Positions 1-19,511 of a DNA stretch of 64,000 nt are shown in pieces. How positions within the stretch are numbered: the stretch's first letter is position 1; the number at the start of each line of letters is the position of its first letter. This stretch comes from an uncultured Phycisphaerales bacterium. Lineage in GTDB: Bacteria; Planctomycetota; Phycisphaerae; Tepidisphaerales; Tepidisphaeraceae. Both the position numbers and the translations under genes were made by a program. Location of the stretch: NCBI GenBank assembly GCA_963758525.1, contig CAVWVQ010000003.1, forward strand, positions 768,001-832,000, read 5' to 3'. The notes under the pieces were generated by a model that was not told the origin of the DNA, searched no databases, and saw only the letters and a program-made list of their open reading frames with translations.

Positions 1-516
1 GCAAATGGCGGCAATCTCCACGGCGACGGTGTGGAACTCAATTTTGAAGCCCCGCTGAGAGATCGCGTCAAATTCTGGGCAAACGGCGCGTGGAACGATT
101 CCAAGCTTCACCTGTTCAACAAAGCTTTGTTCGGCCCCAACCCCGAGGCCAGCGCCGGTGGAACTGAGTCGATTCACACATACGTCAATGAACACGATCA
201 GATTATCGGATCGCCGAGCTATACCGCGAACGCGGGCGTGGAATACGAGATCACGAATCATCTGACTTTTTCGCCGTCACTCCGGTATTTCACGGATCAG
301 GCTGCCGCCAACGACGGGGCATACCTTACCATCCGGAATCGGTTTTATGTCGACGCCACATTCATGTGGAGAGAGATCGCGGGCAGGCACCTGGACTTCG
401 CGCTGTCCGGGTACAATCTTCTCGACAACCGGCAGTCGGTCGGTTCTCCGTTTAATGGAAATACATACAGACCCGGAGGTATCTCATTCGTCGCCTCGCT
501 GACACTGAGGTTCTGA
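1..516 (+). CDS. TonB-dependent outer-membrane receptor, C-terminal part (5' truncated by window)
   Basis: Alternating beta-strand pattern, GYNLLD motif and terminal aromatic residue (…SLTLRF*). Confidence 0.8.
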   Translation, partial: ANGGNLHGDGVELNFEAPLRDRVKFWANGAWNDSKLHLFNKALFGPNPEASAGGTESIHTYVNEHDQIIGSPSYTANAGVEYEITNHLTFSPSLRYFTDQAAANDGAYLTIRNRFYVDATFMWREIAGRHLDFALSGYNLLDNRQSVGSPFNGNTYRPGGISFVASLTLRF

Positions 517-628: not shown

Positions 629-2752
629 ATGACGTCCCCTGGCGCCAAGGATTCTGCGGGAGCGCTCTGGAGCCAACATTGGCGCAGCAAGTCCGCAGGG
701 GCGCGCGTCCGCCTGATTGGCGGGCTGCTGGCGCTGGCGGGCGGAGTGCAGAGCGGATCGGCCGCAGATCCCGCGACGCAGCCTGCATCTCCACAGATAT
801 CAGCCACCACATCAGAGGCTCCTGCCACCGGCACCTCGCCGGGAGTATTGAAGAAACTCAGCCTCGAGGAGTTGATGAACGTCGAGGTCACCACCGTCAC
901 GCGAACCGAAAGCACCGTCGGGTTGTCCCCAGCCGCCGTCTTCGTCATTACGCCAGAGATGATTGATCGCTCCGGTGCGCTGAGCCTCCCCGAGCTGTTC
1001 AGGATGGTGCCGGGGATGGACGTGGCGCGGGTTAATGGCAACACCTGGGCGGTCAGCTCGCGCGGGTACAGCTCGGCATTCGGGGCGGTTTTTCAGAACA
1101 ATCTGCTCGTCCAGGTGGACGGGCGAAGCGTCTACAATCCCATCTTCGGCGGGGTATTCTGGGACACCGTCGATTATCCGCTGCAGGACATCGAGCGCAT
1201 CGAAGTCGTCCGCGGGCCGGGCGGCACGGTCTGGGGGGACAACGCGGTCAACGGCGTCATCAACATCATCACCAAGCCCGCCGATGAAACCCAGGGCGGC
1301 CTCGTCAGCGGCGGCGCCGGAACGCTCGATCGCGGGTTCGGGTCGATCCGCTATGGGGGCAAAATCGGAGACAACACCTGCTACCGGGTTTATGGAAAAG
1401 GCCTGACCCGAGGAGATGATTTCGACTTCAAGGCCGAGCCCAACGACTCGTGGACTGTCGGAGACGGAGGCTTCCGCATCGACTCGCATCCGAGCGACGC
1501 CAATCAGTTCACCTTGCAGGGTGACTATGTTCATAGCGACGCCTCGAGCTTCGCTCAGGCTGGAACCAGGCCGTTCGACTTCACCAGCCAATTCACCGAG
1601 CGGTCCAACGGCACTGATGTGCTGGGCCGATGGACGCATCAGGTGGGCAAGGATTCCAGTTGGAGCCTGCAAACTTACTGGAATTACGTGGAACGCGACT
1701 CTTTTGACAACATTCTGAATCTCCGATGGAGCACGTACGATCTTGACTTTCAGCACAACTTCCTGATCGGCGACAATCAGAAGTTCAATTACGGGCTCGA
1801 ATACCGCTACAACGACTCGTTTCTGGGCCCCAGCTCGTCGAGCACGTTAACCGGGGTCACCAGAGCAAGGCAGAGCGTCTACAGCGGATTCCTCCAGGAC
1901 CAGATCGCGCTGGCGCCAGATCGGCTTTTCCTCACCCTCGGATCCAAGCTTGAATACAACACGTTTTCCCGGTTCGAATATCAGCCCAGCGGCCGGCTGC
2001 TGTGGAGCGTCGATCCTCGCCAATCCGTCTGGGCGGCCATTTCCCGCGCCGTGCATACTCCCGATGTATTCGAACGTGATGTGAGGTTCGTGGAGGCGGC
2101 CGTCCCGCCCGCGCCCGCCACGACTGTGATCGCTCCAAATATGGGCATCGATTCCGAGGCGGTGATTGCATACGAACTGGGCTATCGCGTTCAGGCGACC
2201 GAAACCGTTTCGCTGGACACCGCGGCCTTCTACAACGATTACACAAAAATCAGCCTTCTCGTGCCAGCCGGCGCTGCCCCCGTCCCCTTTATTTTCAAGA
2301 ACGCGATGCGGGGAAAGAGTTATGGTGTCGAGGTCGGGGCCACTTGGAAGCCCGCCGACTGGTGGCAGGTCCGTTCGGCATATACGTTCCAAACCGTTGA
2401 ACTGCACCCCGACCCCAGCCTTTCCCAAATGTTGCAATCCACCTACGGACAGGCTTCCAGGGAAACTCCGCAAAACCAGCTCTATCTTCAGTCCACCTGG
2501 AACCTCCCCCATCACGTCGACTTTGACTTGATGGCTCGATATGTCGAAACCACCGGCGGATTCGTCGGGCCCCAGCCCAATGTGCCCAGCTACATCTCGA
2601 TGGACGCTCGATTGGCCTGGAAACCACGTGACGATCTCGAACTGGCAGTCGTCGGGCAGAATCTGCTCGACAACCATCATCCCGAGTTTGGCGGAAGTCC
2701 GTCGGTGGAAATCCGACGCAGCGTCTATGGGACAGTTACCTACCGCTGGTAG
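629..2752 (+). CDS. TonB-dependent receptor (plug plus barrel), type found with YfiR
   Basis: LSLEELMNVEVTTV N-terminus, plug motif DIERIEVVRGPG…GDNAVNGVINIITK, C-terminal GQNLLD…YRW. Confidence 0.92.
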   Translation: MTSPGAKDSAGALWSQHWRSKSAGARVRLIGGLLALAGGVQSGSAADPATQPASPQISATTSEAPATGTSPGVLKKLSLEELMNVEVTTVTRTESTVGLSPAAVFVITPEMIDRSGALSLPELFRMVPGMDVARVNGNTWAVSSRGYSSAFGAVFQNNLLVQVDGRSVYNPIFGGVFWDTVDYPLQDIERIEVVRGPGGTVWGDNAVNGVINIITKPADETQGGLVSGGAGTLDRGFGSIRYGGKIGDNTCYRVYGKGLTRGDDFDFKAEPNDSWTVGDGGFRIDSHPSDANQFTLQGDYVHSDASSFAQAGTRPFDFTSQFTERSNGTDVLGRWTHQVGKDSSWSLQTYWNYVERDSFDNILNLRWSTYDLDFQHNFLIGDNQKFNYGLEYRYNDSFLGPSSSSTLTGVTRARQSVYSGFLQDQIALAPDRLFLTLGSKLEYNTFSRFEYQPSGRLLWSVDPRQSVWAAISRAVHTPDVFERDVRFVEAAVPPAPATTVIAPNMGIDSEAVIAYELGYRVQATETVSLDTAAFYNDYTKISLLVPAGAAPVPFIFKNAMRGKSYGVEVGATWKPADWWQVRSAYTFQTVELHPDPSLSQMLQSTYGQASRETPQNQLYLQSTWNLPHHVDFDLMARYVETTGGFVGPQPNVPSYISMDARLAWKPRDDLELAVVGQNLLDNHHPEFGGSPSVEIRRSVYGTVTYRW

Positions 2753-2765
2753 GCTGGAGAACCCG

Positions 2766-3350
2766 ATGGAACCACGTTTTGCTCGTGCACATCCTTCCTC
2801 GCAGCGATGCACCGCCGTCCGGCGGCTTCTGGGAGCCGTCGTGGCGGGCTGGATCGTCATGGGGCTGGCGCAAACTTCCGCGATGGCCGCCAGCAAGGAG
2901 TACGAGGTCAAGGCCGCGTTCCTCTTCCACTTCACTCAGTTTGTCGAGTGGCCCGACTCCGCGTTCGCCGATCCCAATGCCCCCTTCTGCATCGGCGTGC
3001 TCGGGGATGATTCGTTTGGGGGCGCGCTCGACGAAATCGTCAAGGACGAAAGCGTCGGCCGGCATAAGATCGTGATCAAGCGCTCCCGCCAGACGGCGGA
3101 CTTGAAAGGGTGCCAGATTCTCTTTATCAGCAACTCGGAGAAGGATCACGTCGCACAGATCCTCTCAAGCCTCGATGATTCGGGAATTCTCACGGTGGGC
3201 GAAACCGACGGTTTTGCCGGGCAAGGGGGAATCATCAACTTCTATCTCGAAGAGAACAAAGTGCGCTTCGAAATCAACCCCGGCACGGCAAAGCACCATG
3301 GGCTGAAGATCAGTTCTCAGTTGCTTGGCCTGGGCAGAATTGTCCGGTAA
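2766..3350 (+). CDS. yfiR: YfiR/HmsC family periplasmic protein (DUF4154)
   Basis: Signal peptide then [19 protein letters not shown]…KVRFEIN…LKISSQLL; start taken at ATG 2766. Confidence 0.9.
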
Positions 3351-3364
3351 GACGTTGGAGACAG

Positions 3365-5014
3365 ATGAACCGGCTGAGAGATCTTTCGATCCGATGGAAG
3401 CTGACGCTTCTGGTTTTGGGTTCGACCCTGAGCGTGCTGCTGCTGGCGTGCATTGCGCTGGTGGTGCGCGAGGTTGCTGCATTCCGCCATGGCATGGTGC
3501 AGGAGCTGACGGTGCTTGCCGACGTCGTCGGCGACAACAGCCGCGCGGCGATCTCCTTCGACAGCCGCGAAGACGCCGAGCGCACGTTGTCGAGCCTTGA
3601 AGTGGAGCCGCACATCATGGGCGCGTGCCTGTTCGGGAAACAGGGAACGCGCTTCGCCGAATACACCCGCGCGGGGGTCGCCCTGGCGTTCCCGGCAGCG
3701 CCGCCCGCAGACGGATCTTATTTTGAACGCGATGATCTGGTGCTGGTTCATCCCGTCATGCTGCATGAGGAGCGCGTCGCGACGATCTACATCGTTTCGG
3801 ATCTCCAGCAGATCAGCGATCAGCTCAAGTCGTATGCCGTGATTATCTGCCTGGTCGTGCTGGCGGCGTTTCTGGTCACGTTCGCGCTCTCGTTTCGTCT
3901 GCACCGCTTCATCTCCGAGCCGATTCTCCGCCTTGCCGAGACGGCGCGCATCGTCGCGGAGAAGAAGGATTATTCCGTCCGCGTCGCCGCCAAAGGCGGC
4001 AAAGACGAGATCGGCCTGCTGACTGGCGCGGTGAATCACATGCTCTCGGAAATTGAGGCCGGCCATACCGCGATGCAGCAGGCCAACCAGTCGCTCGAGG
4101 CCCAGGCGGTGCAGATCAGCGACGCCAAACGATCGCTGGAGGGGCAGGCCGCCCGCATCATGGAGACGGTGAGCGTGCTGGGTTCTTCGTCCAAGGAGAT
4201 CCTCAGTTCAAGCTCGCGGCTTGCCGCCAGCGCCGTCGAGACAGCCACCGCCGTCAACCAGACGACGACCACGGTTGAGGAGGTTCGCCAGACGTCGCTT
4301 CATTCCAGCCAGAAAACACGCCAGGTGTCAGAGAGCGCCCAGCGCGCCGCGGAAGTGTCCGAGCGCGGCAAGCAATCGACGGAACAGACGGCCGAGGGAA
4401 TGCATCGCATTCGCGAGCAGATGCAATCCATCTCCGCCAGCATGCTGCGCTTGAGCGAGCAGACGCAGACGATCGGCGGCATCATCAACACCGTGGAGGA
4501 TTTGGCGCAGCAATCGAACCTGCTGTCGGTCAATGCCGCCATCGAAGCCGCCAAGGCCGGGGAGCATGGAAAGGGATTTGGCGTGGTGGCGCAGGAAGTC
4601 AAATACCTGGCCGACCAGAGCCGCCAGGCAACGACGCAGGTGCGCACCGTCCTCAATGACATCCAGCGGGCGACCAACGCAGTCCTGCTCGCGATCGAGC
4701 AGGGATCCAAAGCGGTTGAAGCCGGGGTGGAGCAATCCGCTGAGGCCGGCAGATCGATCATCCTGTTGTCCCACAACGTCAGCGACGCCGCTCTCGCGTC
4801 CGCGCAAATCGCGGCTTCCAGCCAGCAGCAGGTTGTGGGAATGGATCAGGTGGCCCACGCGATGGAGAGCATCAAGCAAGCCAGCACGCAAAATGTCGAA
4901 AGCGCCAAGCAACTGGAAACCGCGGCGCAAGGCCTCAGCCAGTTGGGGAAGCAACTGGAAGAGCTGGTGGGGCGATATAAGGTGATCTCGAACCGGGGGG
5001 AGAAGGGGGTTTAG
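3365..5014 (+). CDS. Methyl-accepting chemotaxis protein with CHASE8-like periplasmic domain and HAMP
   Basis: Two TM segments flanking [17 protein letters not shown]…; HAMP DEIGLL; MCP tip [29 protein letters not shown]. Confidence 0.92.
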
Positions 5015-5059
5015 CGTGAGCGCCCTATCTCCTCTCGACGTGCCGCTCGCTGCGGGGAA

Positions 5060-5713
5060 TCAGTGGTTCAAGTCGTTCATCAAGGAGTGGAAGCTTTCGA
5101 CAGCGCGATGGGATACCGCGCTACGAACTCCCAATTCTGCGGGGAGCAGATTCTCTTTCTGGGGATTCTCGTTTACATATTTAATGCGGGAGCGCACCTC
5201 GTCGGGAGTGTATAAGAACTTCGAGTATGGGCGTTCGCCCCACACTCGGTGCCGATCCGAAAGATCCGCGACGGCGCGAAGCGATTCGCGAGCTCCCTCG
5301 GCGAAGGTGCGCCAGATGACTTCATGGGAATGTTTGTGTCGCTGGACCACGAGATGCGCGTGATTTCGGAGGATGGCGCACGCCCAAACGTTGTAGCCGA
5401 ATTGCTGGGCGGTTCGCGCGAAGCTTTCAGCGATGAGTTGACGCATGCGTGCATCGAACCAGAGGGTTTCGTGTTCCAACAAGGGCTGAGCTTCCGCGTG
5501 AAATTGCTTCAGCTCGGAGCGACTGGGTTGCCGCTGCTTTCTGCCAGGATGGATTTCGCCCAATGCCGCGAGGAGTTCTTTGCGAATTTCGTCGGAGCCG
5601 CTGCCGCGAATGTCGTTGGGGGGCCAATGTCCGTAGCCCATGAGTACTAAGTGATGAGCGATGACGATCCGATGGCGGGGTTGCCGGTGATTCATGCTGA
5701 TTTGGCGAAACAT
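5060..5713 (-). mobile_element. Y1 HUH transposase, RAYT/IS200-like
   Basis: HLVLMGYGHWPPND N-terminus, HUH motif NHAHLVV, catalytic Tyr in IKYVNENP; a probable indel near the 3' end would give …PQNWEFVARY… and a stop at 5080. Confidence 0.8.
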
Positions 5714-5944
5714 GGTCCGCGACGACGCGAAGCGACTGCCAGGCTCCGTCGGCAATCGAGCGGCAGATCACGCATTACAGTCTCGCTGCAGTGCTACGGT
5801 AGCGAACGACTGATTGAGAATCCAACGCTCTTCGGGGCCCACATTACTCGACCCTACTAATAACGCAGGTACCTGTTCACATCGGACTTCGTACATCGTG
5901 TTCCGCTGCGCGTCGCCGGCGCTCGCTTCGCGTCGTCGCGGACC
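5714..5944. repeat. 22-bp perfect inverted repeat pair upstream of the RAYT-like gene
   Basis: GGTCCGCGACGACGCGAAGCGA at 5714-5735 and its reverse complement at 5923-5944. Confidence 0.85.
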
Positions 5945-6005
5945 GTAGCACCCCAAGAGCCCAAGGAATTCATAACCCGACCCGAAATTGCGGTCCCGCT
6001 TCGAA

Positions 6006-7856
6006 TCACCCCCCCGCGCCTTCCTTCTCCGGCAACTCCCGCAATGGAAGATGCACCGTAAATCGTGAACCTTTCCCAGGCGTCGAGTCCACCTCGATCC
6101 TTCCCCCGTGGTCGGTGACAATTCCGTAGCTGATGCTCAACCCGAGCCCCGTCCCCTGCCCCAGAGGCTTGGTGGTAAAGAAGGGATCGAAAATCCGGCC
6201 GATCACGGCGGGCGGAATGCCGCAGCCGCAATCGGTGACGTCGATCGACAGTTCCGATGCATTAGCGCGGGTTCCGACGACGATCGTGGTGCCCGGTTCA
6301 GATGCATCGATCGCATTACCCAGCAAATTCATAATCACCTGATTGATCTTCGCGGGATAGCAGACCAGCGGGGGAACAGCGGGCAGGTTCATCTCGATCT
6401 TCACGCGCTTTTCCGTCGCGCGGTTGCGAATCAGGTTCACCGTTGACTCGATGCCGGCGTTGATATTCACGGCACTCAGGTCGCTCTCGTCGAGACGAGC
6501 GAAGTCGCGCAGGTCGGTCACGATATGCCGGATGCGATTCAAGCCGTCCTGCGAGCGGACGAGAATCTCCATCAGATTGTCCAGCGTGTAGTTCAGGTCG
6601 ATCCGGTCGCTCAGCTCGGCGATGGGTTCGAACAGATTGGATTGCTGCTGAATGATGCTGTCGGCGGCGCGGTACAGCATCAGGATCTGGCGGACGGAAC
6701 TGACGTCACGCCGCAGCACCGCGACGTTGTTGCTCACAAACGCCAGCGGGTTATTGATCTCGTGGGCGATGCCCGCAACCATCTGCCCCAGGCTCGCCAG
6801 TTTCTCGGTCTGCACCATCTGCGCTCGGGCGCGCTTCAGCGCCTGGTGCGCTTCACGCTCGGATCGGGCGGCGTCTTCAAGAAGATGGTTTTGCTGTTGC
6901 AGCTGCGCTTCGGTGCGCTTCCGCTCCGTGACATCGCGCACCACCGTGCACAACACCTGCCGGCGGCCATACGTGATGACGCCGGCACTGGCTTCGACGG
7001 TCACCAGCGATCCATCCTTGCGGCGGTACTGCCGCTCCCCGAAGGAATGCGAGCCGGCAGCGAGCACCTCCTCGAAGCGCGCATCCACGTTTTCGCGGTC
7101 GTGTCCGACAAAAACGTAGATGCTCATATTCTGCATCTCCTGGGCGCTGTAACCCAGAAGCCGCTGGAACGCTGCGTTGGACTCGACGACCTGCCGATTG
7201 TCCGCATCGACCAGATAAATCCCCTCGGCAGTTTGCTCCACCACGGCGCGGTATCGCTCCTCGCTCTGCTTGAGCTTCCGCGCCTGGTCGACCAGTTCCA
7301 TGTTCAGCAGCGTGAGCTCGCGCTTCGTCCGCGAAAGCTCGGTGTTCCGCTGCACCGCCGCGGCGTACGTCGAAAGCAGGAGATTGAGAATCTGCCGACG
7401 GTCCGCCGAAATGACGTGCGTTTCCCCGTTAAAGACAACCTCGACGGGGGAGGATTCCGCAATCCCCGTCGGAGCGGGATTGGCCAGGATCGACTCGACC
7501 CGTGCCAGCAATTGAGCCGGGTCGTAAGGCTTGGTCAGGTAATAGTCCGCCCCCACTTCCAGTCCGCGCAGCACGTCCGACGCTTCGGACAACGACGTAA
7601 GAAGGATCACCGGAATATCCCGCAGTTGCGGATCCTGCTTGATGGCGTGACACATCTCGTAGCCACCCATGATCGGCATTTCCACGTCGCTGATAATGAA
7701 CGTGGGCTTGCGTGTCCGGGCCGCGGCGAGCGCCTGTTCGCCATCCTCGGCAACCGTCACGCTGTAGCCGCACGCCTCCAGCAGATGAAGCAGGACATTG
7801 GCCTGCGTCGGACTGTCCTCGGCGATCAGGGCCTCGACAGGATTGGAAGCGCTCAC
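6006..7856 (-). CDS. Hybrid sensor histidine kinase (REC-PAS-HisKA-HATPase)
   Basis: LIAEDS/SDVEMP receiver, PAS, H-box AGIAHEINNPL, FFTTKP and GTGLGL. Confidence 0.93.
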   Translation of the reverse strand: MSASNPVEALIAEDSPTQANVLLHLLEACGYSVTVAEDGEQALAAARTRKPTFIISDVEMPIMGGYEMCHAIKQDPQLRDIPVILLTSLSEASDVLRGLEVGADYYLTKPYDPAQLLARVESILANPAPTGIAESSPVEVVFNGETHVISADRRQILNLLLSTYAAAVQRNTELSRTKRELTLLNMELVDQARKLKQSEERYRAVVEQTAEGIYLVDADNRQVVESNAAFQRLLGYSAQEMQNMSIYVFVGHDRENVDARFEEVLAAGSHSFGERQYRRKDGSLVTVEASAGVITYGRRQVLCTVVRDVTERKRTEAQLQQQNHLLEDAARSEREAHQALKRARAQMVQTEKLASLGQMVAGIAHEINNPLAFVSNNVAVLRRDVSSVRQILMLYRAADSIIQQQSNLFEPIAELSDRIDLNYTLDNLMEILVRSQDGLNRIRHIVTDLRDFARLDESDLSAVNINAGIESTVNLIRNRATEKRVKIEMNLPAVPPLVCYPAKINQVIMNLLGNAIDASEPGTTIVVGTRANASELSIDVTDCGCGIPPAVIGRIFDPFFTTKPLGQGTGLGLSISYGIVTDHGGRIEVDSTPGKGSRFTVHLPLRELPEKEGAGG

Positions 7857-8956
7857 AAGCTCCCCCCCTTCAGATGAACTTTTTGATCCGCCGCTGCCTC
7901 AAGCAAGGCGGCAATGCGCTCGGGACTCAGAACAAACGCAGCCGCGTCCAGCTTGACGGCCTCGCCCGGCATCCCGAACACCAGACTGCTTTCCCGGTCC
8001 TGGGCGATCGTCATCGCGCCGCCATCCCGCATCATTTTCAACTGCTCGGCTCCGTCTCTTCCCATCCCCGTGAGTAGCACGCCCGCGGCAAAGGCGCCAT
8101 ACACGCGCGAGACCGATTCGAAGAGATGAGCCACCGACGGTCGCAACCCCGCATCCGGCGCCGCAAGACTCAGAACCAGCCTTCGATCGACGGCAACGCC
8201 CATGTGAAAACCATCGGGGGCGAGATAGGCGTGTCCGGGAAGCGCCTGCTCGCCGGCGCCGGCAATGCTCACGCGAAACCCGGTTGTAGCGGCGAGCCAA
8301 TCGACCAGGCCCTGCAGAAACCCGACGGCGATATGCTGCACGATCAGAATCGGAGCGGGAAACTCAGGCCGCAGCCCGCGCAGGATCGTCTGCAGCGCCA
8401 ACGGACCGCCAGTGGATGCGCCGATGGCAACCACTTCGGGGTGCGGGGTCTTTTGTGTCGGGGATGGAACGAACTGTCGCGCGGGAACGGCGGTCGGACG
8501 CGTCGGCGCGACCGCTGCCCGCGGGCGGGACCACCGCCGCACCATCTTCACCTCCGACATCGCTTTGACGGTCTGCACCAGATATCTCGCATCGCGCTCG
8601 TGGTCCCGATGGCCCGGCCCGTGAGGCTTCCCGACGATGGCAACCGCACCGGCTTCAATGGCTTTGAACGTCGTCGCCACCTCTTCCGGCCGCCAGTTGG
8701 CCGTGACGATCACGATCGGCACGGGCTGGTTTTCGATGATGCGGCGGGTCAACTCAAAACCATTCATTCCAGGCATATTGATGTCGACGGTCACCAGATC
8801 GGGAACGCCATGGCTCAAAGCCTCCAGCGCATCGGCGCCGTTCGCGGCGGTCCCCACAACGCTGATGTCGGGATCGGCGCTGAGGATGCCCTGCAGCAGT
8901 TCCCGCATCACTGCTGAATCCTCGACGATGAATATCCTGATCCGGTGATTCTGCAT
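7853..8956 (-). CDS. cheB: Chemotaxis methylesterase CheB (REC plus esterase)
   Basis: GASTGG, VQHI, RPSV and LTGMGRDGA motifs. Confidence 0.95.
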   Translation of the reverse strand: MQNHRIRIFIVEDSAVMRELLQGILSADPDISVVGTAANGADALEALSHGVPDLVTVDINMPGMNGFELTRRIIENQPVPIVIVTANWRPEEVATTFKAIEAGAVAIVGKPHGPGHRDHERDARYLVQTVKAMSEVKMVRRWSRPRAAVAPTRPTAVPARQFVPSPTQKTPHPEVVAIGASTGGPLALQTILRGLRPEFPAPILIVQHIAVGFLQGLVDWLAATTGFRVSIAGAGEQALPGHAYLAPDGFHMGVAVDRRLVLSLAAPDAGLRPSVAHLFESVSRVYGAFAAGVLLTGMGRDGAEQLKMMRDGGAMTIAQDRESSLVFGMPGEAVKLDAAAFVLSPERIAALLEAAADQKVHLKGGSL

Positions 8957-8959
8957 TCG

Positions 8960-9006
8960 CTCTCAAATGAATGTTCGCGAGTTCTCTCAAATGAATGTTC
9001 GCGAGT
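8960..9006. repeat. 23-bp tandem direct repeat immediately upstream of cheB
   Basis: CTCTCAAATGAATGTTCGCGAGT at 8960-8982 and 8984-9006. Confidence 0.9.
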
Positions 9007-9129
9007 ACGCGATCATGCCGGTCGATCCGCTGCCCGGAGGGCAGCCGCTGAACGATTGCTAAACGCTGCCAAACGTTGACGGAACCGTGCGATGGCGCGG
9101 GGTCTTTCAGCCCCGCGCAGCCGCGTCGC

Positions 9130-11742
9130 TCAAACAAGCCGTCGAACCACGTCCACGAGATTGCTCTGATCGAAACTTCCTTTCACGATATACGCGTTGG
9201 CCCCGACGTCGGCTCCCCGCTCGCGATCCGCGCGAGGCCAGGGCAGTCACCAGCACCACCGGAAGCTCCGCCAATCGCTTGTCGCGGCGGATCGCCGCCG
9301 TCAGATCGAATCCATTCATCCGCGGCATCTCGACGTCACTGACCACCACGTCAAACACTTCCGTGCGCAAGATCGCAAAGGCGTCGACCCCGTCCACCGC
9401 GGTCTTCACGCGATGTCCGGCGGACTCCAGGATGTTTTTGAGCAGCATCCGGGAGGTGATCGAATCCTCCACCACGAGCACCGACTTCCGCGACCTGGCC
9501 GAATCTTCGCCGGAGGGGCGGGCGGCCGCTGCCGGCCGCGCTTTCATCGCCGATTTCATCAAGTCCGCCACATTTAAAATCGGCACCGCGTGACCAGATC
9601 CAAGCACTGTCGCTCCCGCAATATTTCGCACGCGCGATAGCGGTTTGCCCAACTGCTTCACCAACACTTCCTGCTCATTCAACACCGCGTCGACCCGCAT
9701 GGCGATCCGCTTCTCCGCCGATCCGATCACCACCGCCGGCGCGAACCGGGTGGTTTCGTGGCCGGACGGACGGGACAAATCCAGCAGGTCTTCCAGCCGC
9801 ACCAGGGAAACCGTCCGGTCGTCGAGCACCATCATTTCCCGTCCCTCGACCGTCTTCACCTGATCGGGCCGCACGCTGGTGACGCGCTCCACGTGCGTGG
9901 TCGGAAGCACGAACAGTTGGTGAACGACTTCCACCAGAATCCCGCGAAACGTCGCCAGTGTCAGCGGCAACAGGAGCCGAAACGACGTGCCGGCTCCCGG
10001 GCGCGTCTCCAGCGTGACGCGTCCGCCGAGCTTCTCCACTTTCTCCTGCACGATCGCCAGGCCCAGGCCGCGCCCGGAGATTTCGGTGATCGTGTCGCGC
10101 GTCGAAACCTCCGGCTCGAAAATCAGATTCAGCGCTGCGGCGTCCGCCAGTTCATTGGCCTGCGCCTCCGTGAGGTTGCCGTGACGAACCGCTGCCGCGC
10201 GAACGCGGGCGACGCTGATGCCTTGGCCGTCGTCGGAAATCAATATTTCAACTTTGTTTCCGTCCGCCTGGGAGACGGCAAGGTCGATGGTCCCGCGCCA
10301 GGCTTTCCCGCCGCCGTCCGCTGCTGCGGCGTCTCGATGCCATGATCGATGCAGTTTCGCAGGAGGTGAATCAGCGGATCCTTGAGATCTTCAAGAATCC
10401 GCTTGTCAATTTCGCTGTCTTCCCCGCGAATCACCAGCTCGATCTCCTTTCCCATGTCCCTGGATAACTCGCGGACGAGCCTGGGAAACGCGGCAAACAG
10501 GGTGCTGAACGGGAGCATCAGCAGGCGCTTGGATTCTTCCAGCAGAAGGTCGACCCGGGCGGCGGTGTCACGCCGATCGCGGTCGGCGAGCTTCGCCACC
10601 GTTCGGAGCTGATCCTCCGCGGAGCGGACAAACGACTGATTCCAGTCGAAAAACTCCAGCAGCCTGGCCGCAAGCGACGCGGGCACTACGCAATCGCGGC
10701 TGTCGTTTTCCGCCACGCTCCGGCCGTCAGCGCCCGCCGCGGTCATTTGCCGCAGGCTCTGGATGTCGGCCGTCAGCGACGTCCATTGCTTTTCCCATCC
10801 CGCCCACATCACGGTGACATCGCGAAGGTCCGAAGCGCGCTGATCAGCGTTGAGCTTCAGCGCCAACAGTTCCTCGGCGTGCAGCAGGAGCGCATCGAGT
10901 TTGTCAGTTGAAATCCTCAGCGTCTGCGACAGCGAAGACCGCGGAACCGCCCCGCGGTCCCGCGGCGAAGGTGCCGCCTCAGGGGCAGGCGACGCTGCTG
11001 TCTCAGGGGCAGACGACGCTGCTGCCGCAGGGGCAACGGCCGGTGCCGCGGCCGCGGCCGGCGCCTGGCGTGCTGTGAATCCTGTTTCCTGCGAAACGCC
11101 TCTGGTCCCCTCTCCCGGTATCCCGGGAGAGGGATAGGGTGAGGGTGATTTTGGATTGGCAACGGTCGCTCGAACTTCCGAATCACCCTCACCCCTGCCC
11201 TCTCCCGGCGTACCGGGAGAGGGAGCAGTCGGCTCTTGCGACATTGCGCGGTCGCTCGCCCGAACCGGGTCGTCTTGCGGCTTCGTCTCAACCGGCGCCG
11301 CGGCACGCTCAGTGCGCCGCGGCGCAGGCCGTGCCACTTCCAGAGCGGCAAGCTCCTCCTGGACCTTGAACAGCTCGTCGCGCTCGACTTCCGACGCCGC
11401 GCCCCGCGAAGTCGGCAGCAGCCTTTCCACCACCTTGACGGCGCGATGCAGCGGATCCAGCAGCTCCGGAGCCGCCCCCGCGTCACGCCGCTTCCAGGCG
11501 GAGAAGACGCCTTCCAGGGCCTGACAGACCATTTCGATCTCCGCAAGGTTCACCGCGCGGGCGGCGCCTTTGAGACTATGAGCGTCGCGGAAAATGCTCG
11601 ACACGATCTCCTGTCGGCGCGGAGCCTCCGAAGTTTTCTCCAACGCCAGCAATCCCGCGGTAATGGCCTGCAGATGCTCTTCGGCCTCCACGCGGAATGC
11701 GGCCTGCAGTTTGCCGAGAAATTCGTCGTCAGACGACTTCAT
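9130..11742 (-). CDS. cheA: Hybrid CheA/WspE-like kinase (Hpt-dimer-HATPase-CheW-REC), split by apparent frameshifts near 10290 and 9230
   Basis: IFRDAHSLKGAA Hpt, HLLRNCIDHGIE, SDDGQG, SGRGLGL, C-terminal receiver; shifted frame ends …NAYIVKGSFDQSNLVDVVRRLV* at 9130. Confidence 0.9.
11106..11225. repeat. Double-hairpin palindromic element (CCCTCTCCC…GGGAGAGGG type) in-frame within cheA
   Basis: Two ~43-bp inverted arms, each with an internal hairpin; encodes PSPGTPGEGRGEG…PSPYPSPGIPGEG. Confidence 0.85.
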
Positions 11743-12274
11743 GAGGGATCACCGTTCACTTCTTCATGCACAACGATCGACTCGTCTTCCATGATCCTGG
11801 CCGCGTCGAGGACGATCAGTTGCTGGTCCGTGACGCCCAGCAAATATCTCGCGCCACGCCGGTGAGCGTTGAGGGCGCCGGCCGAATTTCGCTGCTGCAA
11901 AGCGACCGGACCCCGAGAATGGCGTCGGCAAGGACGCCGAGCTCGCCTTCGTGATGCTCGATCACAATCACCTTGTTCAAATCGGTCAGACCTTTGATCG
12001 GCAAGTCAAAAAACCGCCGCAGATCGATCACCGTGAGGATCTGCCCGCGCACATTGATGATTCCCAGCACGAATGAAGGCGTGCAGGGAAGCGGTGTCAG
12101 CTCCTTGATGGGGTACACCTCGCGCACCCGGATGCTTTCGATCGCATACTGTTCGTCCGCAAGGCGGAAAACGACGACTTCCAGCGAATTTGTCGTCTCA
12201 TCGGTCGAGCGAATCTCCCTCGCCAGATCGTGCGCGCGTGACTTGAGGATTTCCTTTTTGCTGGAGAGATTCAT
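11739..12274 (-). CDS. cheW: CheW coupling protein (WspD-like), frameshift near 11850
   Basis: LPCTPSFVLGIINVRGQILTVIDL; shifted frame continues YLLGVTDQQLIVLDAARIM…DPS* and overlaps the cheA start (ATGA). Confidence 0.9.
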
Positions 12275-13681
12275 ACCGATAAGCCCCCGTCAACAATCGT
12301 ATGGATGATCTCGGCGAGCCGACCCACGGCCATCCCGTCCGAGTCGGGCACCGGCTCGTCCCGCGAGCGTCCGTGAAGCAGTTCGAGCGCGTTGGCAAAA
12401 TGCCTGCTCATCTGCGACAGCTCACCCTGGTGACGCGCAAGATGCGCCAGCGCGAAGTGGGCCATGACGAACGTCGGATCCAGATAGACGGCCCGGTTGA
12501 ATGAGGCCGCCGCTCCGCGAAAGTCGGCCATTTCCATCAGCATGCTTCCGCGCAGGTAGTGAAAGCTGGGATTCATTTTCTCCGCGTCAATGGCGCGCTG
12601 GCTCAATTCCAGCGCGGCCGCGAGCTTTCCCTGATTGGCATGCGCCTGCGCCATCAAGGCGAGAACGCCCGGAGGGGGATTGAGCCGGGCGGCAATGGGC
12701 TTCAGCCAATGCACCACCTCCGCATATCGCCCCTTCTCGAACAGCGCCGCGGCATGAGCCAGCGCGTCAGCGTCGACATCGACGGGCGCGAGATTCGGCG
12801 CGGGCTCATTGGAACGCTCCGGTTCTTCAAGGACGGCGGCGCCTTTTTGGAATACGACAATCCCCGGATAACTGGCCGTTGTGAGTTCTTTGGACTGGAC
12901 AAATGCGGTCTCCGCTGCGCCGACCAGCAGCCATCCATCTTCGCAAAGGCAGCGGCTGAATTTTTCCACGAGGCGTTCGATCTGCGCCGCAGCGAGGTAG
13001 ATCATGACATTGCGGCACATGATCAGATCCATCGCATTGGTGTTGTTCAGCAACGAAGGAAAGGCGTCCTGGGCCAGGTTGAGATAATCGAAGCTCACCA
13101 TTCTTCGAATTTCTTTGCGCACCTCGAGTTGTCCGTCGCCCGCCGGAGTGAAAAATCGATCCTTGATCTCCGGCGGCAAATTCCGAAATGACCAGTCGCC
13201 AAAAACTCCGGCAGCGGCCTTCTGCAGGAAGCGCGGGTTGATGTCCGTCGCCAGCAGCGTGATGTCCCAATCGTTCACATCGGGCAGGAGCCGGGCCAGC
13301 GTGATGGCCAGGGAATACGGCTCTTCGCCGGTGCAGCATCCGGCCGTCCAGATTCTCAGCCGCCGCTGCTCCGATCTGCGCGCAGAATCAGCGCCGGCAG
13401 AATTTCCTGGGCGAGAATCTCGAAGCTTCGCTGCTCCCGGAAAAAGTAGGTTTCGCCGACCGTGAGATGGCTGGCGAGAATCTCGATCTGCCGTTGGTCC
13501 AGCCGCGCGGAGCAGAGCCACACCGCGCAGCTCTCGGCATCATCAAAGCCGAATTCGCATGCAGCCGCCGCAACGCCGCGCATCAGATCCGCATGCCGTT
13601 CGGCGCGAAGTGAAGCCCCATGCTCGCTTCGATCACTTTGCTCAATTGCCCGGGAAGCAATTGGCGGATGGGGTCGGTCAT
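12271..13681 (-). CDS. cheR: CheR methyltransferase with C-terminal TPR (WspC-like), frameshifts in the 5' part
   Basis: TVGETYFFRE, RIWTAGCCTGEEPYSLA, DLIMCRNVMIY, TPR helices; ATG 13681 overlaps the upstream cheW stop. Confidence 0.9.
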
Positions 13682-14154
13682 GACGCCCCCGTGGCTCGAT
13701 GGTGTTCGTCGATTGCCCCGGTTAACGATAGTTCGTCATTGCCCGACAGGAGGGAATCGAGGTCGTACACCAGGATCATCTCATCCGATCGCCTGAAGAC
13801 CGTCTGCGAGTAATCCAGCGCCGAAGCGATCTGCTCGACGGGGATCAATTCGTCGGCGGCGCACGCGATCACCTCGCTCGAATCGACGATAAAAGCGACG
13901 GTCCGCCTGGAGGTGTGGGCGATGACTAGCTGATGATCGAGTTCGATCTCGCGGTCCACCAGACCGCAGCGACGGCGCAGATTCAGAACCGGCACGATTT
14001 CGCCATGAACGTTGACGATGCCAGCCACGATCGGCGGCGCCTCCGGCAGCGGCGTTACGTACACGACGCGAACCACGCGGTCGACGGCCGCTACCGGCAA
14101 CGCGAAGCGCTGTTCATCCAACGCGACAACCACGAAATGCGAAACAGCCGCCAT
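13678..14154 (-). CDS. cheW: CheW coupling protein (WspB-like)
   Basis: TPLPEAPPIVAGIVNVHGEIVPVLNLR. Confidence 0.9.
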   Translation of the reverse strand: MAAVSHFVVVALDEQRFALPVAAVDRVVRVVYVTPLPEAPPIVAGIVNVHGEIVPVLNLRRRCGLVDREIELDHQLVIAHTSRRTVAFIVDSSEVIACAADELIPVEQIASALDYSQTVFRRSDEMILVYDLDSLLSGNDELSLTGAIDEHHRATGAS

Positions 14155-14251: not shown

Positions 14252-15079
14252 TCATTCAACAGTTGATACTACCACCCCCGTATGCACATCCATTCCCATC
14301 GCCTGAAAGATTTTATCGCGCGTCCGCAGATACTGCGGGGAATCGATGTCGCGCGGGCGCGGCAAGTCGACTGGCACCACGTCGCGGACAGTGGCCGGAC
14401 GATTGCTCATCACCAGCACGCGATCGGCCAGTTGCACCGCTTCTTCGATATCGTGCGTGACGAACAGGACGGTTTTCTTCTCGCCCTGCCAGATGCGGAT
14501 GAGATCGGCGCGCATCTTCAGGCGGGTGAGAAAGTCGAGCGCGCCGAACGGCTCATCCATATAAATGATGTCGGGATTGGCGGCGAGCGCGCGGGCGATC
14601 TCAACGCGCTGACGCATTCCGCCGGACAATTCGCGCGGGTAGGAGCGCTCGAAGCCGTCCAGGCCGACCATGTCAACATAATGCGCGACGATCCGGTTTC
14701 GCTCGGTCGCGCTGAGGCGCGACAGGCCAAAACCGATGTTTTGTTCGACGGTCAGCCAGGGGAAAACCCCATTTTCCTGGAAGACGAAGATGCGCCGATG
14801 GTCGGGGCCGGAAACGGGCTGTCCCTCGACGATCACGTCGCCGCGGGTTGGGGTCAGGAAGCCGGCGATGATGTTGAGCAGCGTTGATTTGCCGCAGCCG
14901 GACGGGCCGACGATGCAGACGAACTCGCCGGGGGAGACGTCGATGCTGACTGACTCCAGCACGTGAACCTGCTCGTCGCGTCGCTTGCCGGCAAAGCTCA
15001 TCCACAGATCGCGCACGACCACGATGGGGCCGGCAGGAATGACCTTTTGCGTCAAGATTGAGCTCCCCGGCTGCTTCAT
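14252..15079 (-). CDS. ABC transporter ATP-binding protein (NitT/TauT family)
   Basis: Walker A GPSGCGKST, LSGGMRQR, MDEPFGALD. Confidence 0.95.
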   Translation of the reverse strand: MKQPGSSILTQKVIPAGPIVVVRDLWMSFAGKRRDEQVHVLESVSIDVSPGEFVCIVGPSGCGKSTLLNIIAGFLTPTRGDVIVEGQPVSGPDHRRIFVFQENGVFPWLTVEQNIGFGLSRLSATERNRIVAHYVDMVGLDGFERSYPRELSGGMRQRVEIARALAANPDIIYMDEPFGALDFLTRLKMRADLIRIWQGEKKTVLFVTHDIEEAVQLADRVLVMSNRPATVRDVVPVDLPRPRDIDSPQYLRTRDKIFQAMGMDVHTGVVVSTVE

Positions 15080-15912
15080 CGCGTTCCATACCCCCAGCGG
15101 ACCTCGTCAAACTTCTCCAGTTGGCGAACGAGCAGATCGAGCACCAGTCCGATGATGCCGATCATGACCATCCCCGCAACGACCAGGTCGTAGCGCCGGC
15201 CGGCGTTGCGCGCGTCGATGATGAGGTAGCCCAGGCCGGAGTTCACGGCGATCATCTCCGCGGCGACGACCACGAGCCACGCCACGCCAAGGGCGATGCG
15301 AATGCCGGTAAGAATCTGCGGCAGCGCCGCCGGGAGAATCACGCGGGCGAACAATTGCACGCGCGACAGCCCGAAGTTGCGTGCCGCCCGCACGTACACC
15401 TGCTGCATGTTTTGCACCGCGGCAATCGCCGCCACGATGATCGGGAACAGGCTGGCCAGGAAAATGAGGAAGATCGGTGCCAAGTCGGAAACGCCGAACC
15501 AGAGAATCGCGACGGGAATCCAGGCGATGGGTGAAATCGGGCGAAACACCTGAAGGATCGGATTGAACGCGTCGAAGGCTTTGCCGAACCATCCGAGGAG
15601 AAGTCCGATCGGCACGCCCACGAGCACGGCTGCGAGAAATCCGCAGGTGACACGGAAGAGCGACGCGACGATGTACTTCAACAGCACGCCATCGCGGGCG
15701 AGTTCGGCAATTCCCTTTGCGACCGCGACGGGCGTGGGAAAAATCTGCGTGCCGGACACGTGCACCGCGCCGTCCCAGCCGAGCAGAAACACGACCGCCA
15801 CTGCCGCAGGGAGGAGGATTTTCTGCAAGGCGATGCCATCGGCAGACCTGCGCGCTGGAGCGGGCCGGGATCGCGCTATTGCCCGCGACTTTGCCTGAAC
15901 CGTTGTCTCCAT
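15076..15912 (-). CDS. ABC transporter permease (NitT/TauT family)
   Basis: RPISPIAWIP, AARNFG, VVAAEMIA; start taken at ATG 15912. Confidence 0.92.
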   Translation of the reverse strand: METTVQAKSRAIARSRPAPARRSADGIALQKILLPAAVAVVFLLGWDGAVHVSGTQIFPTPVAVAKGIAELARDGVLLKYIVASLFRVTCGFLAAVLVGVPIGLLLGWFGKAFDAFNPILQVFRPISPIAWIPVAILWFGVSDLAPIFLIFLASLFPIIVAAIAAVQNMQQVYVRAARNFGLSRVQLFARVILPAALPQILTGIRIALGVAWLVVVAAEMIAVNSGLGYLIIDARNAGRRYDLVVAGMVMIGIIGLVLDLLVRQLEKFDEVRWGYGTR

Positions 15913-15989
15913 GAGCTTCTTTCTCTTTTCCAATACGATCGTGTCGATTGTAGCGATGGCGTCGTTCCATCCGTAATTTCTTGGGCTTC

Positions 15990-16011
15990 GTAGGGCGGGA
16001 TTCATCCCGCC
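15990..16011 (+). repeat. GTAG-type REP (family A), single copy
   Basis: GTAGGGCGGGATTCATCCCGCC, matches the pair at 26318-26406. Confidence 0.85.
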
Positions 16012-16274
16012 GCAGTCCGAGGAGTTGCGATAGGGCGGCGGAACCGCACTGGTGATCAATGCCAATAGCTCCGGGACCGTCAAACAGCGGCTCGATCCCT
16101 GGCCGACGTTTCGTTTCTACCTCACGCCGTTCTGTGTTTCGAGCTTTGCGGCACTGGTGAAAGGGAAGGGCTTTGTCCTCGTCTTCTCGCCGCACGCTTC
16201 TGAAATGGTCGTTGCCCTGCTCCTGTGCGCCGTGCTCTGGAGTGCATCGCGGGTTGCGCGCGGCGGCCGCGGCG

Positions 16275-17321
16275 TTACTGCTTCCCATCCCAATTCCAAG
16301 CCGTGAGCTGCGCGTCATCCTTGCAGAACGACGGATCGCAGTAGTCCTCAAAATGCGCGGTGCCCTGCAGAATGCCCGCCTCGCAGCCGAGCCGCTCGAT
16401 CTCCTCGAAATCCTTTTGATGCAGCGCCAGGTTCGTGTACTTCACGCGATCAGGCGGCTTGCTCAGGACGAACCGGAGCAGTTTGGGATCCTGGTTGTAA
16501 TAGTTCTGCGCCACAAACTGCGACGCCTCCATGCGATGGTCCATCGATTGATCGATCCACTTGCCGCTTTTGGCGATGCCATCGACCAATTGCTGCACCA
16601 CGTCGCGATGCTGTTTGATCATGTCTTCGTTAACGGCCAGCACGCACGAAATGAAGTCCGGCCACACGTCTTTCGTCAGATAAAGCACGCGGCCGTAACC
16701 GTCCAACTCCGTCTCCCCCATGAATGGCTCCCCGGAGGTGATCGCGTCCACCGCCTTGACGGACAGCGCCGCTGGCATATCCGGCGGAGGCATTTCGACC
16801 AGGTGAACATCGTTGATCGTCATCCCATGCTCGCGCAACGCCTTAAACACCAGCAGCCGCTGGTTTGAATAACGATTCGGCACGGCGATCGTTTTCCCGC
16901 GCAGATCTTCGATGCGATAAATCTGCGAGTCCTTGTGCACCATCATCGCGGTGCCGTCGCGATGGCCCAGATAGACAATTTTGATCTTCACCCCCTGCTC
17001 GCGCAGCGCCATCGCCATCGGCGCCAGGATAAACGTCGCCGGCGTGTAACCGGAGAGATGCGCCTCCTTGAGTTCCGGCCAGCCGTTAAATCGCACCGGC
17101 GTGAAGAGGCCTTGGCCGGCCATTTGATGATTGATGTAATCGGTCACCGGGCAGGTGAGATGGCACGTCACGGGAAGGTAGCCAAGCTTGTATTTCTCTT
17201 CGGCAACCTGCGCCGCGGCGCGGGAGAACGGCCGGACATTCCAATTCAGCCACGCATGCGCGGCGGTGATCGCAAGCACCCAGAGGGTCAGGGAGAAGAT
17301 GATGGATTTTTGCAGGGACAA
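16275..17321 (-). CDS. ABC transporter substrate-binding protein (NMT1/CmpA-NrtA-like)
   Basis: LGHRDG, DLRGKTIAVP, MPPPDMPAAL, EPF motifs; upstream of permease and ATPase. Confidence 0.88.
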   Translation of the reverse strand: MSLQKSIIFSLTLWVLAITAAHAWLNWNVRPFSRAAAQVAEEKYKLGYLPVTCHLTCPVTDYINHQMAGQGLFTPVRFNGWPELKEAHLSGYTPATFILAPMAMALREQGVKIKIVYLGHRDGTAMMVHKDSQIYRIEDLRGKTIAVPNRYSNQRLLVFKALREHGMTINDVHLVEMPPPDMPAALSVKAVDAITSGEPFMGETELDGYGRVLYLTKDVWPDFISCVLAVNEDMIKQHRDVVQQLVDGIAKSGKWIDQSMDHRMEASQFVAQNYYNQDPKLLRFVLSKPPDRVKYTNLALHQKDFEEIERLGCEAGILQGTAHFEDYCDPSFCKDDAQLTAWNWDGKQ

Positions 17322-18706: not shown

Positions 18707-19297
18707 ATGCCATCGACCCCAGCCAAGCGTCCGATTCTGATCGTCGATGACGAGCCGGACATGCTCCATTCGCTGAAGAATCTGCTCCGGCATGACTACC
18801 AGGTCTTCAGCGCGTCCAGCGGCGCGGAGGGAATCCGGATATTGGAGCGGGAGATCATTCATCTGGTGATGACCGATCAGCGCATGCCGGAAATGACCGG
18901 GGTCGAGCTGCTCAAGCACGTCAAAAGCGAGCACCCGGCCGCCATCCGCCTGATCTTCACCGGCTACGCCGACGTGAAAGCCGTCATTGCCGCGATCAAT
19001 CAGGGGAATGTCTTTCGCTTTCTCAGCAAGCCATGGGAGCCCGAAGAGCTGATGTCGGTGCTGCAGGAAGCCGGCGAGCACCATGACCACATCGTTCAGC
19101 GCGACACGCTGCTGAATGACATTGCCCGTTACGAGCAGGACTCCAACCAATTTCGCGATGACGTGCTTGCGGGGAAGTTTGGCTCCCTTACCAGGGAAGG
19201 CGCCGAAAAAACCGAGCAATTGCTGGCGACCAGCCGCCAACTGCTCGGCCGCCTGGAGCAATCCCTCGCCGCCGCGATGCGCAGGCCGATGCGCTGA
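18707..19297 (+). CDS. Response regulator (REC plus helical tail)
   Basis: ILIVDDE, MTDQRMPEMTG, FLSKPW. Confidence 0.9.
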   Translation: MPSTPAKRPILIVDDEPDMLHSLKNLLRHDYQVFSASSGAEGIRILEREIIHLVMTDQRMPEMTGVELLKHVKSEHPAAIRLIFTGYADVKAVIAAINQGNVFRFLSKPWEPEELMSVLQEAGEHHDHIVQRDTLLNDIARYEQDSNQFRDDVLAGKFGSLTREGAEKTEQLLATSRQLLGRLEQSLAAAMRRPMR

Positions 19298-19388
19298 GCT
19301 TCGCGCCCGATACCTTTTCAGTGCAGAACTGCTTTCAGAACCGAAACCGCAGAGCTGCCCCCGAGTTTCCAACGATACGCAGTCACCC

Positions 19389-19495: not shown

Positions 19496-19511
19496 TTGGG
19501 CGGCCGTCGCA

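Follow-up and report, generated by a model that had tools for sequence, protein, structure and literature searches.

A TonB-dependent receptor, a YfiR-like protein and a CHASE8 chemoreceptor facing an ACF-type che operon in an uncultured Phycisphaerales bacterium

How could a signal from outside the cell reach a chemosensory pathway whose operon encodes no chemoreceptor? The question is raised by a locus in a 64,000-nucleotide stretch of contig CAVWVQ010000003.1 (here, the window), in which an operon for a TonB-dependent receptor, a YfiR-like protein and a methyl-accepting chemotaxis protein (MCP) faces a che operon. The initial annotation had read the locus as a YfiR module rewired onto a chemoreceptor, through which an outer-membrane receptor could gate an otherwise receptor-less pathway. 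Our analysis confirmed the gene observation and partly supported this interpretation.

Gene content of the two operons

Profile search and sequence agreed on the annotated plus-strand order of receptor, yfiR and MCP genes, with intergenic gaps of 13 and 14 nt and a GGAG preceding the ATG at both. The receptor (629..2752; plug and barrel, model pLDDT of 90) is TOL_0244-like, NF053590 being by far its best-matching family. It is followed by a 194-amino-acid (aa) YfiR-like periplasmic protein (2766..3350, mature part 2889-3347; PF13689, 157.6 bits) and a TM-CHASE8-TM-HAMP-MCPsignal chemoreceptor (3365..5014) with an ACF-length signalling hairpin. Domain profiles placed CHASE8 at residues 41-143 (E value of 1.8e-14), HAMP at 179-231 and MCPsignal, the output domain, at 324-505, while HisKA, HATPase and GGDEF were not found on this sensor. 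Another TonB-dependent receptor gene, distant and missing from the initial annotation, ends 112 nt upstream on the same strand (3′ part, 1..516; full gene G000:C3:766354-768516); its product also has an LSLE-type N-terminal motif. A promoter scan returned 0 sigma-70-like sites, and terminator-like matches occurred at chance level.

On the minus strand, profiles and sequence likewise bore out the annotated operon, which contains no MCP gene. Domain profiles identified a first CheW (13678..14154), CheR-TPR (12271..13681), a second CheW (11739..12274), a WspE/ACF-type CheA (9130..11742; Hpt, HATPase, CheW and REC), CheB (7853..8956; REC and methylesterase, intact in homologue alignment) and a hybrid output kinase (6006..7856; REC-PAS-HisKA-HATPase). 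ATGA overlaps join cheW to cheR, cheR to the second cheW and the latter to cheA, and a GTGA overlap joins cheB to the kinase gene; two of these four stop/start overlaps are visible only when frameshifts are read through. The CheA linker carries an in-frame, REP-like palindrome (11108-11224). Between the operons lie REP-like inverted repeats (5714-5740 and 5918-5944) and an open reading frame (ORF) resembling a REP-associated tyrosine transposase (5060..5755, minus strand, likely start 5695; NF047646 E value of 9e-09, below the cut-off), which is outside the pathway. Neither this ORF nor the frame changes described below had been annotated.

Comparison with intact homologues by tblastn located frame changes near 13386 in cheR, 11850 in the second cheW, and 10300 and 9234 in cheA, and a probable fifth, near 13600 in cheR, was found by eye. 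These 4-5 frameshifts within 4.6 kb exceed the background (P of about 0.03, with the rate corrected for missed breaks), whereas none occurs in the other seven genes here. Together with the transposase-like gene at the operon junction and a facing arrangement unseen in other loci, this would fit a che operon that, following rearrangement by transposase insertion and REP insertion in cheA, has decayed in this strain and left the cassette without a working output here. However, the aligned che regions are free of in-frame stops, the segments beyond the breaks are still 45-79% identical to homologues, the cheW/cheA ATGA overlap bears no deletion scar, and the breaks resemble, by eye, losses of 1-2 bases in short runs. 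Moreover, the same method flagged frameshifts in 18 of 114 other genes, a total of 20 breaks over 132 kb, versus 2 breaks in 9.6 kb here. Among sequencing runs, one of soil DNA shared 9% of the words and no RNA run was listed; contigs of the soil run were 95-100% alike in places, and none spans the frameshift sites. We consider decay very unlikely and the frameshifts in cheR, cheW and cheA probable assembly errors.

The chemoreceptor of the che operon

The pathway is not receptor-less, as first proposed, but split across two operons, because the genome encodes just two MCPs, one of them within a che cluster of its own and the other being the CHASE8 chemoreceptor on the facing strand, which is of ACF length and belongs to a type whose cassette stands in line with che genes in 12 of 19 CHASE8-MCP loci. 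Judged by its tip-to-end distance of 138 aa, which equals that of all 116 locus MCPs with a resolved pattern (106 with other sensors and 10 with CHASE8), the protein falls into a length class that we take to be 40H and fits the ACF cluster. Its signalling domain is 65-70% identical to those of in-operon ACF MCPs, and with frameshifts read through the facing operon supplies the ACF set of CheR-TPR, two CheW, CheA with REC, CheB and a multidomain response regulator. Linkage in relatives was also found: che genes lie in the same locus in 14/19 cases, and one genome of the same genus carries the series cheW-receptor-yfiR-MCP-cheA-kinase on a single strand, with identities of 71% for the receptor and 61% for the kinase. 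In another genome (G188), no MCP besides the CHASE8 one was found. Collectively, these sequence comparisons make the CHASE8 chemoreceptor the likely receptor of the facing ACF-type operon. The facing arrangement itself occurs in 0 of the other 19 loci; the split is a local rearrangement.

The initial annotation had set the hybrid-kinase output against WspR. Such an output is not unusual: a hybrid kinase follows cheB in 62 of 76 non-CHASE8 ACF loci, and about 40% of the regulators of CheR-TPR clusters carry a kinase (PMC3447774). The class definition of ACF used here rests on PMC3447774 and PMC6943060; class-specific HMMs for CheA, CheB and CheR (MiST3) are absent from Pfam (PMC6943060).

YfiR and the N-terminal motif of the receptor

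The yfiR gene adjoins the CHASE8 MCP gene in 17/17 loci with upstream room. The modelled YfiR-like protein matched solved YfiR structures (4yn9, 5eb1 and 4zhu) with Foldseek TM scores of 0.69-0.75 and a profile E value of 2e-11, at 16-17% identity. One cysteine is invariant in the family (113/113) and a second is present in 45/113, while equivalents of Cys145-Cys152, the redox disulfide of Pseudomonas aeruginosa YfiR, are absent from the protein studied here. The MCP retains a YfiR-binding-type patch, AAISF at residues 61-65 (AAVVF in YfiN), and across 54 rows the A, A and F of A-A-x-x-F are conserved 41, 37 and 45 times, respectively. In P. aeruginosa, YfiR binds YfiN and loss of YfiR activates YfiN, which marks it as a repressor (PMC3375315). 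By analogy, the YfiR-like protein likely holds the CHASE8 chemoreceptor in check.

The proposed YfiR module on a chemoreceptor was thus upheld as to the YfiN-type sensor and its patch, but not as to novelty. The locus is less new than claimed because NCBIfam already holds the trio, kinase outputs are common, and a YfiN homologue with MCP output was noted in 2012 (Polaromonas, Table S4, alongside kinase and GGDEF/EAL outputs; PMC3375315). The main text of that paper contains the word TonB 0 times. A search for YfiR/DUF4154 with TonB receptor, chemotaxis or histidine kinase, with subscription journals mostly outside its reach, returned no paper testing the trio. While the relay itself is catalogued, what is new here is a receptor N-terminal motif that tracks YfiR.

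This motif, LSLEELM (residues 77-83; 857..877, plus strand), is a predicted short periplasmic helix, modelled with low confidence (pLDDT 53-66, residues 1-20), just before the TonB-box-like strand of the receptor. A receptor gene lies directly upstream of yfiR in 12/17 loci, and three of the 17 cassettes (L018, L093 and L094) have no receptor in the locus. Among Pseudomonadota, motif-bearing receptors were found in 35 of 37 genomes with YfiR-like proteins versus 0 of 84 others, and in the window's phylum in 17 of 20 versus 1 of 131, with a search profile that included sequences from 1 of the 35 and 2 of the 17 positive genomes; the motif-inclusive match was missing in 2/37 and 3/20 YfiR-like genomes, respectively. 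At the genome level, this co-occurrence is mostly plain operon linkage.

The motif is common to receptors only 22-27% identical, and sister receptors carry E-x-x-L-[FWY]-x-[ED] instead; the genome studied here has receptors of both types. An ABC_sub_bind-like gene lies near 10 of 14 receptors of the latter type versus 0 of 10 LSLE receptors. On a tree of 32 hand-picked rows, at least 4 motif changes are forced and the partner tracks the motif in 4/4 independent pairs (P of 0.125, underpowered); the motif labels combine column counts with hand labels, a strict pattern having mislabelled 26 of 125 receptors and five rows elsewhere. The alternative that the motif marks a single receptor clade was recovered in 0% of bootstrap trees. 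One receptor (L254) passes NF053590 with 662 bits, but its match begins only at position 14 of the profile; its gene adjoins genes for binding proteins, and its genome lacks yfiR. Because the motif tracks YfiR, the sister motif goes with an ABC-type partner and at least four swaps lie on the tree, the comparisons point to LSLEELM as a predicted adaptor-docking peptide. We infer gating by the outer-membrane receptor, the odds of which are raised by the motif co-variation.

The same receptor could instead hand over a ligand: it would import a ligand for YfiR or CHASE8, and loaded YfiR would switch the MCP by delivery rather than by removal of a repressor, possibly still docking at the motif. The receptor retains a TonB-box-like strand with full plug and barrel in the model, and the genome has TonB genes. 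After YfiR, the YfiR-like protein matches best in fold a single-domain substrate-binding protein and members of ABC_sub_bind. In sister cassettes the partner is a two-domain ABC_sub_bind-like protein, and PahP is described as passing from receptor to kinase depending on ligand (PMC10570129). However, YfiR has a single lobe and hence no cleft between two lobes, where typical binding proteins take up ligand (PMC10805632), and the MCP retains the repressor-binding motif, in line with the P. aeruginosa genetics cited above (PMC3375315); we regard hand-off as rather unlikely. Quite improbable, in our assessment, is a receptor that is only a co-regulated transporter, with YfiR-MCP sensing the envelope state alone and the motif, as a TonB-box extension or folding element, hitch-hiking with the operon. 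YfiNR pairs without YfiB are indeed common and YfiR can itself be the input (PMC3375315), and no receptor adjoins two cassettes (L018 and L094) or the yfiR-kinase pairs of three genomes (G009, G031 and G040). Yet these genomes have motif-bearing receptors elsewhere, the motif changes with partner class within one receptor family (L254), and the P. aeruginosa redox disulfide is absent here.

A proposed relay and its relation to known systems

On balance, we favor a relay in which the CHASE8 MCP serves the facing ACF operon and is checked by YfiR, which the receptor would capture through its N-terminal periplasmic helix upon binding an outside ligand. Gene content, domains, cassette-che linkage, MCP length and motif/partner co-variation were observed, and the mechanistic steps build on them. 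YfiR would bind CHASE8 at its AAISF patch, just as it binds YfiN in P. aeruginosa; ligand and TonB engagement would expose the LSLEELM helix beside the TonB box; and the exposed helix would sequester YfiR, the role of YfiB in YfiBNR. The freed MCP would then alter CheA activity via the two CheWs, with adaptation by CheR-TPR and CheB, and CheA would phosphorylate the hybrid kinase on its REC domain; the kinase may pass the signal on to a further regulator.

Tentatively, and with somewhat less confidence than the relay itself, we propose that a short docking code on TonB-dependent receptors picks the periplasmic adaptor, LSLEELM-type motifs selecting YfiR and E-x-x-L-[FWY]-x-[ED]-type motifs ABC_sub_bind-like proteins. 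Bacterial YfiR signalling might then run mainly through receptor-YfiR relays rather than through YfiB (compare 35/37 sampled Pseudomonadota genomes with YfiR-like proteins), a single YfiR could take input from several receptors in trans, and the chemoreceptor array here may be gated from outside by two such receptors. Receptor-YfiR cassettes occur in about 30% of sampled Pseudomonadota genomes and in 13% of those in the window's phylum; if the receptor gates YfiR, they would constitute a common, sigma-factor-free route for outside signals through both membranes to kinases, cyclases and adaptive chemoreceptor arrays. The single locus, a rearranged copy within a family of >100 proteins, adds little alone, but its LSLEELM motif makes the relay cheaply testable.

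The closest curated relative is the NCBIfam trio of NF053590 (TOL_0244 family TonB-dependent receptor), NF053591 (TOL_0243 family YfiR-like protein) and NF053592 (sensor histidine kinase, YfiR-like protein-associated). The locus has the three components in the same order, and both its YfiR-like protein (166 versus 125 bits) and its sensor region (residues 8-231; 219.2 versus 194 bits) exceed the curated cut-offs. In contrast, its output is an MCP signalling domain rather than a histidine kinase, and its receptor, matched over positions 2-603 of the 604-position profile, stays under the cut-off (590.6 versus 645 bits). A kinase-output copy of the trio lies elsewhere in the same genome (C3:1523366-1528407).

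In FecA/FpvA-type signalling, the element N-terminal of the TonB box is a folded domain that contacts an anti-sigma factor. The candidate motif here would occupy the analogous place; however, it spans 7 residues, and Pfam detects no such folded domain. With YfiBNR of P. aeruginosa (PMC3375315; PMC4655355) the locus shares a YfiR fold beside a TM-CHASE8-TM-HAMP sensor with an AAxxF patch, but it lacks the YfiB OmpA/Pal-like lipoprotein, having two TonB receptors upstream, as well as the GGDEF domain of the sensor and the Cys145-Cys152 pair. Since YfiB engages YfiR by extending a beta-sheet (PMC4655355) and not by a helix, the YfiB analogy is loose. ACF clusters with CheR-TPR, such as Wsp of Pseudomonas (PMC3447774), have the same cheW, cheR-TPR, cheW, cheA with C-terminal REC, cheB and multidomain response regulator; here, the facing strand encodes the MCP, whose sensor is of the type presumably controlled by YfiR, and the output is REC-PAS-HisKA-HATPase instead of the REC-GGDEF of WspR. 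Finally, PahS-PahP-PahK/PahR of Cycloclasticus sp. P1, an experimental precedent in that direct binding between receptor, periplasmic protein and kinase is reported, likewise combines an outer-membrane beta-barrel receptor, a periplasmic partner and an inner-membrane signalling protein in one cluster (PMC10570129). In that system the partner is PahP, a ligand-binding protein of 318 aa, PahK reportedly has no periplasmic sensor and the output is a two-component system (PMC10570129), whereas the partner here is a 194-aa YfiR-like protein in place of a two-lobe binding protein.

Layout and reading frames of the facing operons

Domain searches placed a TonB-dependent receptor gene at 629-2752 on the + strand, followed on the same strand by a yfiR-like gene (2766-3350) and a gene for a chemoreceptor with CHASE8, HAMP and MCPsignal domains (3365-5014); the sequence gaps are 13 nt (receptor/yfiR) and 14 nt (yfiR/MCP). 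The facing - strand operon comprises cheW, cheR-TPR, cheW, cheA, cheB and a REC-PAS-HisKA-HATPase kinase gene, four-base stop/start overlaps occur within it, its cheA ends in a C-terminal REC, and no MCP gene lies within it. The initial annotation, which had described this cassette opposite an MCP-free che operon, was thus borne out in domains, gaps and overlaps. It did not record a second TonB receptor upstream (3′ end at 516) or the frameshifts in cheR, cheA and the second of the cheW genes.

Using intact homologues from five loci, tblastn located frame changes near 13386, 11850, 10300 and 9234 and revealed no in-frame stops in the che alignments; a fifth change, near 13600, was found by eye. 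These frameshifts likely represent assembly error, while decay of the che genes may account for them instead. Applied to 114 other genes of this 6-contig assembly, a single automatic method detected frameshifts in 18, with 20 breaks over 132 kb, compared with 2 breaks in 9.6 kb at this locus. When the background rate was adjusted for breaks that the method misses, the 5 breaks counted by hand in 4.6 kb gave a P of ~0.03, and the count over the whole 13 kb a P of 0.55. None of the frameshift sites was bridged by contigs of one sequencing run.

The region also contains several repeats and mobile elements. Between the operons lies a REP-associated tyrosine transposase-like open reading frame with REP-like repeats (5060-5944), likewise missing from the initial annotation; a pair of 27-nt inverted repeats precedes the gene, which itself contains a third copy. 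The genome holds approximately 10 related copies, and the repeat core has 22 matches genome-wide. A palindromic REP-like element of the CCCTCTCCC...GGGAGAGGG type (172 strand-wise matches in the genome) forms an in-frame insertion in the CheA linker at 11108-11224 and is adjoined by a 24-nt threefold repeat (10964-11035). The 174 nt between cheA and cheB include an exact 23-nt direct repeat (8960-9006) close to the start of cheB, which may be a binding site for a regulator or a duplication made in assembly. An ABC transporter of the NMT1/sulfonate type (14252-17321) immediately precedes the first cheW, with the same orientation and a 97-nt gap. Candidate downstream partners of the output hybrid kinase are a PAS histidine kinase that resembles it (18707-21187, interrupted by a change of frame near 20030) together with the receiver-like gene that follows it, and a receiver-domain gene that lies shortly before the window and is oriented divergently to the upstream receptor gene (G000:C3:765586-766206; G000 is the source genome).

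Chemoreceptor and che pathway

The genome encodes two MCPs, and the other one resides within a separate che cluster. Between the hairpin tip and the final conserved aromatic, this MCP has 138 residues, as do all 116 MCPs of the loci in which the pattern was resolved. A CHASE8-MCP is encoded in 19 of the 157 loci examined; yfiR adjoins it in 17/17 loci with upstream room, and in 12 of these 17 a receptor gene immediately precedes yfiR. Of the 19 loci, 14 also contain che genes (12 in line, 2 divergent). In a same-genus genome, the cassette is collinear with cheW, cheA and a kinase gene whose product is 61% identical. In several loci, L081 and L091 among them, the cassette sits exactly in the MCP slot, in the order cheW-cheR-cheW-receptor-yfiR-MCP-cheA-cheB; cheW and cheA flank an MCP in 106/108 loci, a count biased by the way the loci were found. 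Collectively, the MCP count, the matching length, the locus linkage and the cassette in the MCP slot argue for a pathway split by local rearrangement and against the receptor-less pathway originally proposed. The MCP very probably belongs with the che operon of the ACF class, an assignment we regard as well supported. The CHASE8-HAMP-MCP family is not rare; among the 120 homologues listed, query counted, 117 share this architecture.

In locus L101, a receptor-yfiR-CHASE8 kinase set directly precedes a complete ACF operon that encodes MCPs of its own, an arrangement that may represent an intermediate toward the sensor-MCP fusion. Three verrucomicrobial cassettes (L015, L025 and L042) carry a second, longer receptor type beside yfiR (766-812 codons of open frame), and L025 contains two yfiR-like genes and two MCPs.

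A receptor N-terminal motif as putative YfiR docking site

Our main lead, new in this analysis and placed above the points stressed by the initial annotation, is an LSLEELM-type motif (residues 77-83) that may dock YfiR. It lies just before the TonB-box-like strand of the receptor family (L82 in 118/125 rows, E80 in 106/125), was modelled with low confidence as a short helix, and is common to the upstream receptor and the second receptors of L015, L025 and L042 despite 22-27% likeness. Among 41 relatives, motif receptors occurred in 6/6 genomes with yfiR versus 0/9 receptor-bearing genomes without it, a count that omits a single plug match located where a contig begins. Taking a profile start at position ≤7 with an E value of 1e-6 or better as a motif-inclusive match, we found one in 17 of 20 genomes of the phylum with a YfiR-like gene versus 1 of 131 without (151 in all; 93 of the 131 have receptors, and the lone exception is a 198-codon fragment), and in 35/37 versus 0/84 of 121 Pseudomonadota genomes; related genomes are not independent in these counts, and three positive genomes contributed to the profile. 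Much of this co-occurrence is operon linkage. Yet 8/10 motif receptors examined in longer loci are solitary although their genomes carry yfiR, and one genome with no receptor next to its yfiR-MCP pair encodes two motif receptors at other sites.

Sister receptors bear another motif, E-x-x-L-[FWY]-x-[ED], and an ABC_sub_bind-like gene adjoins 10/14 of them versus 0/10 LSLE receptors (7 neighbours confirmed by Pfam PF04392, 3 by a profile that we made from five of them). One such receptor, in a genome without yfiR, passes the NCBIfam receptor model NF053590 but aligns from profile position 14 only. In a tree of 32 hand-picked receptors, built without the motif columns, neither motif forms one clade, well-supported branches force at least 4 motif changes, and the partner follows the motif in 4/4 independent pairs (p 0.125). 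As read from sequences, this relation is co-variation, not binding. The two systems may be homologous, since fold comparison likens YfiR to a single lobe of ABC_sub_bind proteins. The source genome itself has a sister cassette (L261, G000:C1:22135-28115) in which an ABC_sub_bind-like gene accompanies a receptor bearing the alternative motif and a BarA/TorS-like hybrid kinase.

Proposed mechanism and known counterparts

YfiR on a CHASE8 patch would most likely set the state of the MCP, and YfiR control of the MCP is likely. Ligand at the receptor would expose the helix beside the TonB box, which would pull YfiR away; the MCP would then signal via CheW and CheA, with adaptation by CheR-TPR and CheB, and CheA would pass its output to the REC of the hybrid kinase. 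TonB genes are present in the genome, and in translation CheA, CheB, CheR and the kinase each show their catalytic motifs. That the receptor gates the pathway through the motif appears slightly better than an even proposition. The receptor may instead hand ligand to YfiR in place of sequestering it, and receptor gating by sequestration or hand-off, counted together, is more probable than gating through the motif.

Parts of this chain have precedents. Direct binding is reported along a chain of receptor, periplasmic protein and kinase (PMC10570129), and PMC4655355 has YfiB and, by prediction, YfiN occupying one surface of YfiR. Single-domain binding proteins occur near MCP genes, as described in PMC10805632, and the protein concerned was the next match after YfiR itself in a fold search with the YfiR-like protein. 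PMC3447774 places a kinase module in ~40% of regulators of cheR-TPR clusters; a kinase follows cheB in 62/76 loci examined here.

A kinase-output paralogue (G000:C3:1523366-1528407) consists of a receptor frameshifted near its end, yfiR and a CHASE8 hybrid kinase, followed by REC and GGDEF/EAL-like genes. NCBIfam curates the components of the trio together; our YfiR-like protein and sensor passed the cut-offs of NF053591 and NF053592, and the receptor narrowly missed that of NF053590. The catalogued receptor-YfiR-sensor cassette has a variant with chemoreceptor output that recurs across genomes, and this locus is a genuine, though rearranged, example of it.
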